Source of the DNA: Candidatus Bathyarchaeota archaeon | Lineage (GTDB): Archaea; Thermoproteota; Bathyarchaeia; TCS64 | Assembly: GCA_043826455.1 (NCBI GenBank) | Contig: JBDRQD010000057.1 | Location: 30,462-94,461, forward strand | Length of the DNA: 64,000 nt | Direction: 5' to 3' | In this document: positions 27,001 through 30,000 of the stretch, piece by piece | How positions within the stretch are numbered: position 1 is the stretch's first letter | Layout: each line of letters begins with the position of its first letter | Program-made: the position numbers

Positions 27001-30000
27001 TGCGTTCCTTCAGCCATCTGAGGGTTTTTTGGTCGGGCTCGCAGAGGCCCGTCTTTCCGCCCATCTCGATGGCCATGTTGCAGAGGGTCATGCGGCTGGA
27101 GACACTCATGTCTGCGACTGTCTCCCCGTGGAACTCCAGGGCCATGTAGGTTGCCCCGCTGACGCCGATCTCCTTGGCCACCCTGAGGATAACGTCCTTG
27201 CTGGTGACGTGCTCAGGCAGCCTTCCGCTGACCTCCACCTTGATGGTCTCGGGGACCTTGAGCCAGGTCTTGCCCTTGGCCAGGACGGCGCCCATGTCCG
27301 TGCTGCCCACGCCGGTGGCGAAGGCCCCGAAGGCGCCGTGGGTGCAGGTGTGGCTGTCGGCGCCGATGACCACCTGGCCGGGCTTTACGTGACCGTGCTC
27401 GGGGAGTACCTGGTGGCAGACGCCGCTGTTAACGTCGTAGAGGTGGGGGATGCCCTGCTCCTGGGCGAACTCTCGGATGGCTTTGTGGACGCGGGCGGAG
27501 TTGACGCTGCTGGGGGGCGCCACGTGGTCCAGGATGAGGACGACCTTCTCGGGGTCCCACACCTTTTGTGTTCCTATGGCTTTCATGGCCTCGAAGGCGA
27601 GGACCGCAGTGATGTCTGGCATCATGGCCACATCGATCCGGGCCTTGACGAATTGGCCAGCCTTGGCTGTCGTCTGGCCTGAAGCCTTGGTGAGTATCTT
27701 CTCTGACAGTGTCTCTCCCATCTCAGTTTCTCCTGTTCATGCTGTGGTAGAGGTTGACTCCCTTCAGGTAGGCGTCCACGCTGGCCATGACTATGTCCGT
27801 GTCTTCGCCCCTGCTGGTGACCACCTTGTCTCCCTGCCTGAGCCTGACCTCCACGTTGACGGCGGCGTCTGTGCCGCCGGTGATGGCCTCCACCTGGTAC
27901 AGCTCCAGGGTCACCTCCTCCTCGGGCTTGACTGCCTTGATGACGGCGTTGAGGGTGGCGTCCACGGGGCCGTTGCCTGTGGCTGCCTCCATGTAGGTTT
28001 CGCCGTTGCGGGTGAGCTTGACCGAGGCGGTGGGGGTTATCCTGTTGCCTGTGGTTACTATAAACTCGTCGAGGACCAGGGGTCTGTGCTGTTGGACGGC
28101 CATCACCTCTGTAGCGATGGCGTAGAGGTCGGTGTCGCTGAGGGTGAAGCCCCTGTCGCCAAGCTCCTTGACGCGCTGGTACACGGCCTCAAACTGGTCT
28201 CTGGTGGAGTCTAGGCCCATCTCGCCTAGGCTCTTGCTGAGGCCTGCGCTTCCGGCGTGTTTGCCTGAGACTATGCGTCTGGCTGCGCCGACGATGGCGG
28301 GGTCTATGCGCTCGTAGGTCGCTGGGTCCTTGAGGATGGCGTGGGTGTGGATGCCTGACTCGTGGGCGAAGGCGTTCTTGCCCACGATGGCCTTGTTGGG
28401 CTGGACGTGGACGCCTGTGACGCGGCTGACGGTCATGCTGGCCTGGGTGATGTGTCTGAGGTTGATGCCCGGCTCCACATCGTATAGGAGTTTTAAGGCT
28501 ACGGCGAGCTCCTCGAGGCTGGCGTTTCCGGCACGTTCTCCTAGGCCGTTGACTGTTGCGTGGATGTGGATGGCTCCTGCGGCAATAGCGGAGAGGGTGT
28601 TTGCTACGGCGAGGCCGAAGTCGTTGTGGCAGTGGACGCCCAGGGTCATGTCTGGGTAGGCGTCGTGGATCTCCTTGTAGAAGGCGTGGCTTTTTTCTGG
28701 TGTTAGGGTGCCCACGGTGTCGCAGGGTGTGACTCTGTCGGCTCCGGCGTCGAGGGCGCGGCCGATGACCTGTTTGATGTAGCTCATCTCGGTGCGGGTT
28801 CCGTCCTCCAGGCAGACTTCGGCGGTGACGCCCCGGTCTTTGGCGTGCTGGACGACGTTGGTGGTTACTTCCAGCATCTCTGGCTGGGTTTTGCCCAGCT
28901 TCTTGTGGATGTGGAGCTCGCTTGTAGGGATTATTATGTTGACGCTGTCGGCTCCGGCGTCTATGGCTACGTCGATGTCCTGAATGACGCTGCGGGTGGC
29001 GCTGCAGATCTCTGCGTCGAGGCCTGCTTTGCTTATGAGTTTGACTGCTTCTTTTTCTCCGGGGCTGACGGCGGCGAAGCCTGCCTCGATGACGGTTACG
29101 CCTAGCTGGTCTAGGCTTCTGGCTATCTGGAGCTTCTTGGTTGGTGTCAGGCTTATGCCGGGGGTTTGTTCTCCGTCGCGGAGGGTGGTGTCTAGGAACT
29201 GTACCTTTTGTGGGTACTCAGCTAATAAAACGATACCCCATGTTCCTCACGTACCCTGTATCCGTCTGTTAAGCGGATTTAAGTTTAGCGTCTCATGGGT
29301 GGGTGGGTTGTTCTGTGGGTGGGGTTGTGTGTTTGTTGTTGTGTGTGGGGTGGGGGGGGGGAGGGGGGTGTCGCCGCCGCCGTCATTTTTCCCCTGTTTT
29401 CGGGTTTTTTTAGGGTTTGGAGGCTTTTCCGGGGTTGTTTGGCGGCGGCGGAGGGTGGCGGTGTCCGCCGCGGTTTTGTGGGTTGGGTGTTTTGGGGTTG
29501 TTTTTATTCTGCTCCTAGGAGGTGGATCATGCTGAGGGCGTAGGCCTTGGTGGTGGCTACTATGTCATCGACCTTGATGCGCTCGTTGGGGGAGTGGACG
29601 CCCTCTCCGCCGATGCCGTAGCTGGCGAAGGGTTTGCCGTGGCGGCGGACGAACCAGCCGTGGTCGCTGCTGTGGCTGCCGCCCACGGGTTTGGCGTTGT
29701 GTCCTAGGGTTTTGGCTGCCCGCTGTATGGCTTTGACGAGGGGGGTGTCGGCGGGGGCCACGGAGACTAGGTTTCCCTGCTCAACCCTGTAATCGATATC
29801 TAGTGCTGGGTTGCTCTTCTTGGCTCGTTTGATAGCGTCCGCATACTCCTTGTCTATCTGTTTCTCGGTCTCGCCTGGGGTGTACCTGCGGTCCACGTAT
29901 ATCTCGCAGTGATCCGGGACGTTGTTGTTGGCCACGTAGCCGTGGACGCGGTTTATGCTGAACCTTGACTTCATCACGGAGTCTGTGCCGGGCAGGTGGT

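Follow-up and report, generated by a model that had tools for sequence, protein, structure and literature searches.

The window analysed here, 64,000 nucleotides of contig JBDRQD010000057.1 from a Candidatus Bathyarchaeota archaeon, carries on its minus strand a coding stretch of 500 codons plus stop for an enzyme of the citramalate-synthase type (LeuA/CimA family; 27723..29225). A LeuC/HacA-family dehydratase large subunit (26462..27721, minus strand; NF001614, TIGR01343 and TIGR02086 above cut-off) begins 1 nt past the cimA stop and is followed on the same strand by a LeuD/DmdB-family small subunit (25968..26462; TIGR02087 above cut-off) and, as the operon's last gene, a LeuB-like isopropylmalate/isohomocitrate dehydrogenase (24968..25966; TIGR02088, 404 bits, slightly below the cut-off of 409.8). 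Between a TGA at 29249-29247 and the stop at 27725-27723, the enzyme frame runs open for 507 codons, and the catalytic motif DTTLRDGEQ lies at 29192-29166. Within the window, no ATG, GTG, TTG or CTG was found in this frame 5' of the motif, where only an ATC (29234) and two TTA codons stand, and the first CTG (29150) lies 3' of it. The initial annotation, which had held that cimA lacks a start codon of its own and that its gene call is short by 116 codons, was correct on both counts: the first in-frame ATG lies at 28877, and the usual call beginning there (384 aa) drops 116 codons of the 500-codon stretch.

The enzyme is likely to be CimA, an (R)-citramalate synthase, as judged from its sequence. 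An HMGL-like barrel carrying DTTLRDGEQ together with a C-terminal LeuA regulatory domain places it in the LeuA/CimA (DRE-TIM) family; it matched NF002085 at 574.7 bits (cut-off 517) over residues 4-496, and its close homologs, named D-citramalate synthase by JGI and isopropylmalate synthase by NCBI, carry PF00682, PF22617 and PF08502. The pocket Leu of three solved IPMS chains and of the genome's own paralog is absent from the cimA-type protein. In a tree of 55 rows, built by a quick method and containing neither an outgroup nor any characterised CimA or LeuA, the cimA-type rows and the paralog group fell on opposite sides of a 99% branch. A structure search found no archaeal CimA among solved structures.

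Upstream, a TATA-like box CTTAAAT (29277..29283, minus strand) lies about 36-42 nt 5' of an ATG at 29241, and an AT-rich box occupies the matching place in aligned relatives; from general archaeal promoter spacing, the 5' leader would be about 15 nt long. The ATG opens a seven-codon upstream open reading frame (uORF; 29218..29241, minus strand), ATG GGG TAT CGT TTT ATT AGC TGA, preceded by a Shine-Dalgarno (SD)-like GTGAGG (29245..29250, minus strand) that includes the TGA closing the enzyme frame and forms a duplex of -5.7 kcal/mol with the 16S 3' end of the genome, GGATCACCTCCT. Purine-rich columns were seen 7-12 nt 5' of the uORF start in a set of 151 unique cimA leaders; a lenient SD count in these leaders (147/151) was set aside as evidence. 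The uORF had been noted before as M-G-Y-R-F-I-stop and is indeed present, but its peptide is Met-Gly-Tyr-Arg-Phe-Ile-Ser (MGYRFIS), the Ser having been omitted. The uORF, which ends at a TGA (29220-29218), overlaps the enzyme gene out of frame, the enzyme frame being +1 to it, and the proposed +1 shift site consists of a P-site TTT (Phe) and an A-site ATT (Ile) at 29224..29229 (minus strand), with decoding resuming at 29225. Also within the uORF is an internal SD-like stretch, GGGGTATC (29232..29239, minus strand), whose duplex with the 16S tail reaches -8.5 kcal/mol. When 25 observed variants were set against their synonymous recodings, pairing of this type beat or equalled every alternative in 19 and was above the median in all 25; by this comparison the stretch, 5-6 nt from the P-site codon, looks selected, and it may be a pause or stimulator element.

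Conservation of this layout was extensive. Each of the 53 cimA-type loci that had a 5' end, fetched by protein similarity and blind to the motif, carries a start, two to three codons and TTT-ATY in the +1 register (two of the 30 loci in the first cimA set had no 5' end and were left out), and leuA-type paralogs are without the cassette. It occurs in 46 of the 55 tree rows, which form one side of the 99% branch, the other nine having the Leu-type pocket, and in 7 of 20 short loci, the same seven that score as cimA-type. A GTDB-wide pattern that demanded the GGG codon and left the register free gave at least 119 matches. Among the 119 listed, the register is +1 in 117, the uORF start is ATG in 107 and GTG in 8 though its base was left free, and three without an RTG/TTG uORF start each have their own in-frame ATG. 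A stop directly follows ATY in 27 of these and comes later in the remainder; in 148 of the 151 cimA leaders it lies at most five codons past Ile. None of the 151 has a canonical start between the uORF ATG and the site, and 100 have none from -30 nt to four codons before the catalytic motif. A class-wide pattern matched 63 times across 31 of the 71 genomes and its reversed control twice, and all six matches in the window's own genome stand at branched-chain genes, so the cassette is not a product of chance; because the genomes are kin, the counts overstate independence. The genome is a draft (81 contigs, 7% contamination), which would suit an assembly error or an old pseudogene; this explanation is refuted by the conservation and retains next to no probability, since an equal layout is common to at least 116 GTDB loci, some of them on records titled as complete chromosomes, and also to families outside the window's class, dN/dS is 0.04-0.19 across six cimA pairs, and the cimA frames of relatives are open for about 490 codons.

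A like cassette was found 5' of ilvB, with Val, Ile or Leu codons, and of valS, with Val, where the +1 frame ends at the downstream start. For ilvB, the +1 frame ends within -4 to +32 nt of the start in 55 of 60 cassettes and the -1 frame in none of the 60 (17 of 50 loci, missed by the anchor pattern, were left out); one leader (L346), in which the +1 frame stops 66 nt short of the start, counts against the proposed reading. The P-site codon is TTT in all 47 Ile/Val cassettes of ilvB leaders, whereas before CTY (Leu, n = 13, ilvB leaders) it is ATT in six, GTT in three, TTT in three and CTT in one, and never NTC. A fixed TTT before Ile and Val and a free first base before Leu are as predicted by +1 re-pairing of the P-site tRNA: with A or G as the next base, tRNA-Phe alone would keep two pairs, and with C, any G34-A35 tRNA would keep pairs 2 and 3 on UUC. 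Avoidance of TTT-C before Leu was considered and proved wrong, as three of the 13 Leu cassettes have it and the first base there is free. Scans of the window's genome with loose patterns for other amino-acid cassettes looked chance-like among the matches listed, and the Trp pattern missed the trpS cassette, so other cassettes may exist.

The sensor codon tracks the gene, being Val at 10/10 valS loci, Ile at 17/17 cimA loci and Trp at 30/30 trpS loci, and tandem Val+Ile or Val+Leu cassettes exist in ilvB leaders; this matching of codon to gene points to gating by the end product. A genuine frameshift at a fixed low rate, capping the enzyme level without responding to the amino acid, could draw on the rarity of TTT (6% of Phe codons in the genome), by which the site might be shifty in itself; however, such a shift needs no match between sensor and gene, and we regard it as very improbable.

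It is quite probable that a portable cassette of six codons senses the charging of one tRNA and answers by a programmed frameshift. For cimA, the best reading of the sequence is a +1 shift at UUU-AUY, for which the absence of a canonical start, the conserved register, the match of sensor to pathway, the +1 coupling at ilvB and valS, and the way in which the P-site codon covaries with the sensor's first base all argue; the earlier proposal of a +1 entry into the 500-codon frame at the Ile codon is thus supported by the 53 loci and by the P-site covariation. Ribosomes would start at the SD-led uORF ATG, since start and SD are both conserved, and after five codons would hold peptidyl-tRNA-Phe on UUU while AUY occupies the A site. 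Given ample Ile-tRNA, reading would continue to the stop one codon later and yield no enzyme. With Ile-tRNA scarce, the A site would stay empty and tRNA-Phe could slip by one base and retain two of its three pairs on UUA, so that decoding from 29225 would give a 505-residue enzyme with five uORF-derived residues at its front. The internal G-rich stretch would probably pair with the 16S 3' end and hold the ribosome. At ilvB and valS, slipped ribosomes would traverse the leader to a stop overlapping the start of the gene, giving translational coupling, not fusion.

Several observations stand against a shift. Single-base differences from start to site are synonymous at 0.67 in the +1 frame versus 0.19 in the uORF frame, and an ATH lies at the codon corresponding to 29232-29234 or the next one in 145 of 151 cimA leaders (absent in six) and in 58 of 60 ilvB cassettes. 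The six ATH-less cimA leaders all have an in-frame GTG or TTG at most 30 nt upstream, as do 42 of the 151 overall. Re-pairing would be imperfect, going from UUU to UUA at cimA and, in the Trp cassette described below, from GAC to GGA with one standard and one wobble pair. Bacterial attenuators use runs of cognate codons, beside which a single codon makes a thin sensor.

The synonymous pattern and the ATH codons favor non-AUG initiation in the output frame, with CimA beginning at the ATH five bases 5' of the Phe codon (the ATC at 29232..29234, minus strand, in the window) and TrpB2 at a CTG overlapping its Trp codon. The uORF might then act by occlusion, or a stalled ribosome might drop its short peptidyl-tRNA and re-initiate at the near-cognate codon; the amino-acid sensor would be retained and the trans-frame protein absent. 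As far as the available text of PMC8305020 goes, an in-frame CTG is likewise one option for haloarchaeal leuA2. However, no SD lies at a usable distance from the ATH (the upstream SD is 14-19 nt off and the G run touches it), the ATH is absent in six cimA leaders and two ilvB cassettes, and the bases that replace it at cimA pair with the 16S tail equally well or better (-8.6 to -11.4 kcal/mol). Neither the exclusive TTT before Ile and Val nor the free first base before Leu would be predicted, and a stalled ribosome acting by plain occlusion would lower expression when the amino acid is scarce, which is the wrong sign. In a crude test on the genome, SD enrichment was absent for ATC (0.95), ATT (0.40) and CTG (1.21); with CTG only 1.21-fold behind a strong SD in genes without a canonical SD-led start, the claim that this lineage uses CTG starts elsewhere was not supported. 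Taken over all genes, non-AUG initiation is unlikely, and at cimA it is a little less likely still.

TrpB2 is the less certain case, as had been anticipated. In the window's genome (contig C46), its leader reads GTG TAT CAC TTG GAC TGG, the GTG being the uORF start itself, with a stop after 11 codons; the TrpB2 frame is -1 to the uORF and open for 462 codons. The protein belongs to TrpB2 by TIGR01415 (642.9 bits versus 518.85) and PRK12391 (700.4 versus 366), and no trpA was found above cut-off in the genome. A Trp cassette with -1 output stands 5' of trpB2 at 25 of 29 loci (one of the 30, without a 5' end, was left out) and 5' of trpS at 30 of 30. The locus sets compiled here thus gave 53 of 53 for cimA and 25 of 29 for trpB2, where the initial annotation had counted 27 of 27 and 21 of 26. 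At trpS, 24 of 30 cassettes have a -1 frame ending within -4 to +32 of the start, and one has a +1 frame that does so; one trpS locus (L403) is fused, and in one genome (G047) the cassette is coupled to a trpB2 that has its own GTG. A G stands directly 5' of the P-site codon in all 30 trpS and all 25 trpB2 cassettes, across five different codons, which initiation at CTG would not predict; the invariant C of GAC/GGC, in turn, is unaccounted for by slippage. The cassette G-GRC-UGG may be the -1 equivalent, coupled at trpS and fused at trpB2, and forms the less sure half of the proposal.

The -1 output frame of the TrpB2 fusion, as first described, is backed by the trpS cassette, but sequence does not discriminate between entry by slippage, which we modestly favor, and initiation at the invariant CTG. 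The in-frame CTG occurs in the output frame of 55/55 Trp cassettes and is level with ordinary trpB2 starts, which in cassette-less genes lie 1-8 codons 5' of the aligned Asp, on both sides of the CTG position. Initiation at CTG is thus a serious rival for TrpB2, to which we give somewhat less than an even chance.

Other shifts were tried and rejected. For trpB2, the window's genome suggests a +5 hop between GAC and a second GAC downstream, but this fails because many relatives have GAA or GCT where the ribosome would land. At cimA, a +4 hop from UUU to UUY suits some loci only, a -2 slip would find no re-pairing, the bases before TTT being mostly GC, and a shifty stop is contradicted by the stop not adjoining Ile in most loci. 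Mending of the frame in the RNA, whether through slippage of the polymerase, through editing or through a small intron, might be suggested by the run of four T at the window's own site; however, the run is only three long in 71% of the 151 leaders, where C precedes TTT, no stimulatory or other local fold was detected in 31 sampled cimA leaders (mean z +0.31, 0/31 below -2), and both the sensor-gene match and the -1 Trp output would be left unexplained, making such mending highly improbable. In four metatranscriptome sets, with small word shares, no contig bridging the cimA site (31 letters each side) and no gaps were found among the matches listed, an uninformative result.

Taken as a whole, the evidence tips slightly towards a modular frameshift switch for amino-acid synthesis and tRNA charging in Bathyarchaeia, and perhaps in many other archaea, replacing bacterial attenuation. 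One six-codon cassette would take an exchangeable sensor (Ile, Val, Leu or Trp), shift by +1 or -1, be fused (CimA, TrpB2) or coupled (ilvB, valS, trpS) to its gene, and in tandem form an OR gate. If true, this would be the first natural, selected hungry-codon frameshifting to serve end-product feedback, and a novel means by which cells detect amino-acid shortage. Amino-acid sensing at the archaeal ribosome is largely open, with one shown chromosomal frameshift in archaea according to the available text of a 2021 review (PMC8211752). The cassette is a testable candidate of 24 nt, with natural variants from which site, direction and ligand can be predicted, and it would lend itself to use as a small, swappable biosensor of amino acids. 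CimA and TrpB2 would also be miscalled across Bathyarchaeia; database gene calls for cimA share no common start, and 45 of 120 homologs are truncated below the catalytic motif.

A literature search found no description of the TTT-ATY/Trp cassette. In bacteria, the ilv, leu and trp operons have leader-peptide attenuators, which read tRNA charging through a uORF with cognate codons and so control biosynthetic genes; they combine codon runs with alternative RNA hairpins acting on transcription. The cassette, in contrast, has one cognate codon, gives a frame change as output and, at cimA, has no start of its own for the gene and no fold signal in the 31 leaders, and so does not match a leader-peptide transcription attenuator.

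Haloarchaeal leuA2 (HVO_1510) is another LeuA/CimA-family gene without a usable canonical start and with an ATG that is conserved and lies out of frame, for which the available text of PMC8305020 speculates on slippage, with translation only when leucine is short, and treats an in-frame CTG as an equal option. That text leaves site, direction and sensor codon unnamed, and the enzyme and phylum differ, with no regulon. In hungry-codon frameshifting (Gallant) and at the Ty1 site CUU_AGG_C, a slow A-site sense codon similarly lets the P-site tRNA shift, though Ty1 depends on a scarce tRNA and not on end-product feedback; the extent to which starvation-induced shifting is used in nature was left open by a 2016 review, in the part available (PMC5009743). 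According to the same part, ermC (with ketolides) and E. coli pheL resemble the arrangements proposed for ilvB, valS and trpS in that a leader frameshift sends ribosomes into the spacer and turns the gene on, but ermC responds to a drug, the pheL shift was judged incidental, and neither fuses leader to enzyme (PMC5009743). Saccharolobus solfataricus fucA1, the only -1 case reported in archaea as far as the text of PMC8211752 extends, is likewise an archaeal chromosomal enzyme requiring a frameshift, at an A-AAA-AAT heptamer, but has no known sensor there.

A further parallel is the autoregulatory +1 frameshift of bacterial release factor 2 (prfB), with which, as outlined in the available part of PMC5009743, the cassette would share a short zero-frame ORF, a protein made solely from the +1 frame, P-site re-pairing at a slow A site and an internal, G-rich SD on the 5' side of the site. 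In bacteria, UUU_U is a minority prfB site, and the internal SD stimulates +1 shifting at 3 nt from the site, as against 5-6 nt in the cassette (PMC5009743, same part). The cassette is archaeal, is reused at several genes, and occurs in versions for Val, Leu, Ile and Trp as well as in a -1 form. Like prfB, cimA has a +1-frame protein without its own start, albeit with a near-cognate ATH present, and a conserved re-pairing P-site codon, albeit with two of three pairs only. The A site of prfB, in that account, is a stop codon sensing RF2, whereas that of the cassette is an end-product sense codon (ATY at cimA), with the stop 0-5 codons on; the cassette would therefore resemble prfB in its working without being a prfB-type site.

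An SD-like GTGAGG (29250-29245, minus strand) was found in the window three bases 5' of the uORF ATG GGG TAT CGT TTT ATT AGC TGA (29241-29218, minus strand). The initial annotation had read this uORF as M-G-Y-R-F-I-stop; the uORF is present, but with its terminal Ser, which had been left out, it has seven codons. The enzyme frame, which is +1 relative to the uORF, runs uninterrupted for 507 codons between a TGA within the SD and the stop at 27725-27723; its product is a LeuA/CimA-family enzyme (NF002085, 574.7 bits), followed downstream by leuC-, leuD- and leuB-like genes in turn. 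The claims that the cimA-type gene lacks a canonical start of its own and had been called 116 codons short were both borne out, with ATG, GTG, TTG and CTG all absent from the enzyme frame 5' of DTTLRDGEQ and the first in-frame ATG lying 116 codons downstream. The DTTLRDGEQ motif contains the catalytic Arg and Asp of the family, and as it is missing from the 384-aa called product, that product could not work. Elsewhere in the window, the stretch separating the M20 peptidase gene from the cimA promoter (29290-29500, about 200 nt) is strongly A+C-rich on the minus strand, and a tandem pair of genes occupies 20654-23981, which from their translations we take to be thermosome (group II chaperonin) genes.

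The frame arrangement at cimA was found to be real and deeply conserved. Among motif-blind loci, picked by protein similarity alone from 61 relatives and 111 genomes of the phylum, a cassette of start-GGG-NNN-NNN-TTT-ATY with a stop soon after was present at 28/28 loci with a 5' end (from the first 30 loci). In a quick tree without an outgroup, 46 of 55 full-length rows carried the +1-register cassette, and a 99% branch separated them from the remaining nine, which included the genome's own paralog and lacked it. The 20 short loci comprised seven with the cassette, all scoring cimA-type, and 13 without, of which 12 were paralog-type by score and one, having its own ATG, was tied; the motif-blind total was thus 53/53 cimA-type loci. 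The cassette was found in three families beyond the window's GTDB class and, among 21 metagenome loci, in 6/6 at ≥72% identity and 0/15 at ≤54%. The same layout gave, among the matches listed, 74 of 80 record titles from Bathyarchaeia or a subgroup. A GTDB-wide search in which TGGGG and TTTATY were fixed, but start base, register and stop were unconstrained, matched at least 119 loci; among the matches listed, starts were ATG (107), GTG (8), TTG (1) and CTG (3), and the register was +1 in 117/119. The three CTG rows were regarded as chance, each having an in-frame ATG of its own. Assembly error or a pseudogene was excluded by the conserved layout and by purifying selection on the cimA-type coding sequence (dN/dS 0.04-0.19, six pairs). 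Leaders of one family (loci L096, L226 and L227) had an extra TTT-ATC in frame with the uORF and four codons further upstream, possibly a doubled site.

The enzyme is likely CimA. At a pocket position it has Ala, whereas the genome's own paralog and the three solved isopropylmalate synthases used for comparison have Leu. Its closest homologs are named D-citramalate synthase (JGI) or isopropylmalate synthase (NCBI), and of the 46 loci examined, leuC follows the gene at 20 and ilvB at 18. As threonine-dehydratase-like genes are present in the window's genome, below the family cut-off, Ile may have a second route; the best two matches (contig C28, 32274-33161; C30, 87383-88333) have one internal stop each.

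Start codons were surveyed in 151 unique, motif-selected cimA leaders. No canonical start lay between uORF start and shift site in any of them, and the whole stretch was free of canonical starts in 100; 14 had one downstream of the site, 42 had one in frame ≤30 nt upstream, often within the SD, and six had an in-frame ATG somewhere in the stretch. Public gene calls were inconsistent: 45 of 120 homologs start below the catalytic motif and the others at many unrelated places. About 20 more coding-like frames in the genome (C56:16939, C46:79492, C52:4835, C2:57825 and others) lack ATG, GTG and TTG in their first 30 codons, some with a CTG near the 5' end and others maybe broken genes. There is also evidence against a shift, as a non-AUG start in the enzyme frame, at an ATH just 5' of the shift site, would fit these leaders. 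ATH lies at this position in 145/151, and base differences near it are synonymous at 0.67 in the +1 frame versus 0.19 in frame 0, a pattern that an rRNA-pairing element would explain equally well. The six ATH-less leaders pair with the 16S tail as strongly or more so, which favours the pairing element, though each of them also carries a GTG or TTG in frame ≤30 nt upstream. Codon 3 encodes Tyr, Asn, Asp, Cys or Trp and codon 4 Arg, Cys, His, Tyr or Ser, and compared with synonymous recodings their pairing to the 16S tail was best or tied best in 19/25 variants. A further point against the shift is that the internal SD lies 5-6 nt from the P-site codon, unlike the 3 nt of bacterial +1 stimulation described in the portion of PMC5009743 consulted. 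None of the RNA contigs examined spanned the cimA shift site.

The cassette is reused across genes, with a sixth codon matching the gene downstream. Six places in the genome matched: cimA (Ile), ilvB1 (Val then Ile), ilvB2 (Val then Leu) and valS (Val); no match was obtained 5' of ileS, leuS or the leuA paralog. When 71 genomes of the class were scanned, the pattern gave 63 matches versus 2 for the control, comprising 54 TTT-ATY or TTT-GTY, two ATT-CTY and seven other or unexplained, and the sixth codon was Val at 10/10 valS and Ile at 17/17 cimA loci. The valS cassette of the genome (C39:43633, minus strand; locus L314) has a +1 frame ending on the TTG start. Matches whose sixth codon differs (CTT-CTT in two genomes, TTT-AAA, TTT-ACC and CTT-TGC; loci L242, L243, L254, L255 and L272) precede genes without a matching pathway or without any match. 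An anchor pattern located 33 of 50 ilvB loci, and all 33 carried cassettes, 60 in total. The +1 frame stayed open as far as -4 to +32 nt relative to the ilvB start in 55/60, the -1 frame in 0/60; the exceptions were L346 (-66, three cassettes) and L371 (-7, two). Frame 0 is therefore taken as sensed and the +1 frame as output, fused or coupled to the gene. The ilvB leaders (C48:142695-142519 and 137857-137702, minus strand; L317-L346, L368-L387) have two or three same-frame cassettes 42-45 nt apart, the stop of one often abutting the start of the next, and would form an OR gate that takes Val, Leu and Ile as inputs. By eye, a run of C and a run of G 3' of the Val cassette resemble a hairpin.

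The strongest clue to how the frame changes is covariation of the fifth and sixth codons, seen at ilvB with the fifth left free as NTY. TTT preceded Ile or Val sensors in 47/47 cases, whereas the 13 Leu sensors followed ATT (6), GTT (3), TTT (3) or CTT (1); NTC never occurred among the 60 cassettes. TTT makes up only 6% of Phe codons in the genome. In the genus of the window, all four first bases were seen in the Leu cassette, whereas the Val cassette 45 nt upstream constantly had TTT. Slipping by +1 would bring UUC into the P site of a Leu cassette, and on it G34-A35 tRNAs for Phe, Ile, Val and Leu would retain pairs 2 and 3; in an Ile/Val cassette it would bring in UUA or UUG, on which only tRNA-Phe would retain two. 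P-site re-pairing would thus predict a pattern, TTT-only before Ile/Val and free before Leu, that re-initiation does not. Overall, the cimA cassette is most probably a programmed, Ile-responsive +1 frameshift making CimA, and the frameshift-switch reading as a whole, cimA and the rest together, is probable.

TrpB2 had been proposed to arise by a -1 shift at GAC-UGG. Of 29 loci whose 5' end was available, 25 were confirmed to carry G-GAC-TGG, -1-fused; slippage is slightly more likely than not to account for TrpB2, with initiation at a CTG overlapping the Trp codon as the less likely but serious alternative. The uORF start was GTG in 24/25 cassette loci, and canonical starts were absent from the first ten codons of all 25 (one had an upstream ATG), while seven more distant loci all had ordinary starts and no true cassette (one chance pattern match). 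The C forming the CTG is invariant in 55/55 Trp cassettes, GAC making up 87% of Asp codons in the genome, and ordinary trpB2 starts lie on both sides of its position, as a CTG start would allow. As a -1 landing would require, G likewise stands directly 5' of the P-site codon in 55/55, be it part of a Ser, Pro, Leu or Arg codon; in two genomes GGC takes the place of GAC. Another genome, G047, has a trpB2 with a GTG of its own, to which the cassette is coupled. Beyond trpB2, the Trp cassette was newly observed ahead of trpS, at 30/30 loci (including C48:75585, plus strand; L311, L388-L417). In 24 of these its -1 frame ended within -4 to +32 nt of the trpS start, in five it ended 5-13 nt short of that start and in one (L403) it was fused to TrpS; the +1 frame ended within -4 to +32 nt in only 1/30. 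By eye, the -1 peptide resembles the TrpB2 N-terminus over about 15 residues, as if the trpS cassette had been copied from trpB2. Locus L301 has a Trp cassette ahead of a gene that by eye is trpE-like. A lone TrpB2 serves indole salvage; as no trpA above cut-off was found in the window's genome, its TrpB2 is predicted to salvage indole.

No account of the cassette was found in the literature searched, most subscription papers lying outside that search. The part of PMC5009743 consulted covers prfB, antizyme, the drug-induced ermC leader shift and an incidental pheL shift, leaving natural use of hungry-codon frameshifting open, and that of PMC8211752 gives fucA1 as the single -1 frameshift reported in archaea. 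The cassette would work like prfB but lacks the A-site stop that defines it, and would be a new form of regulatory frameshifting.
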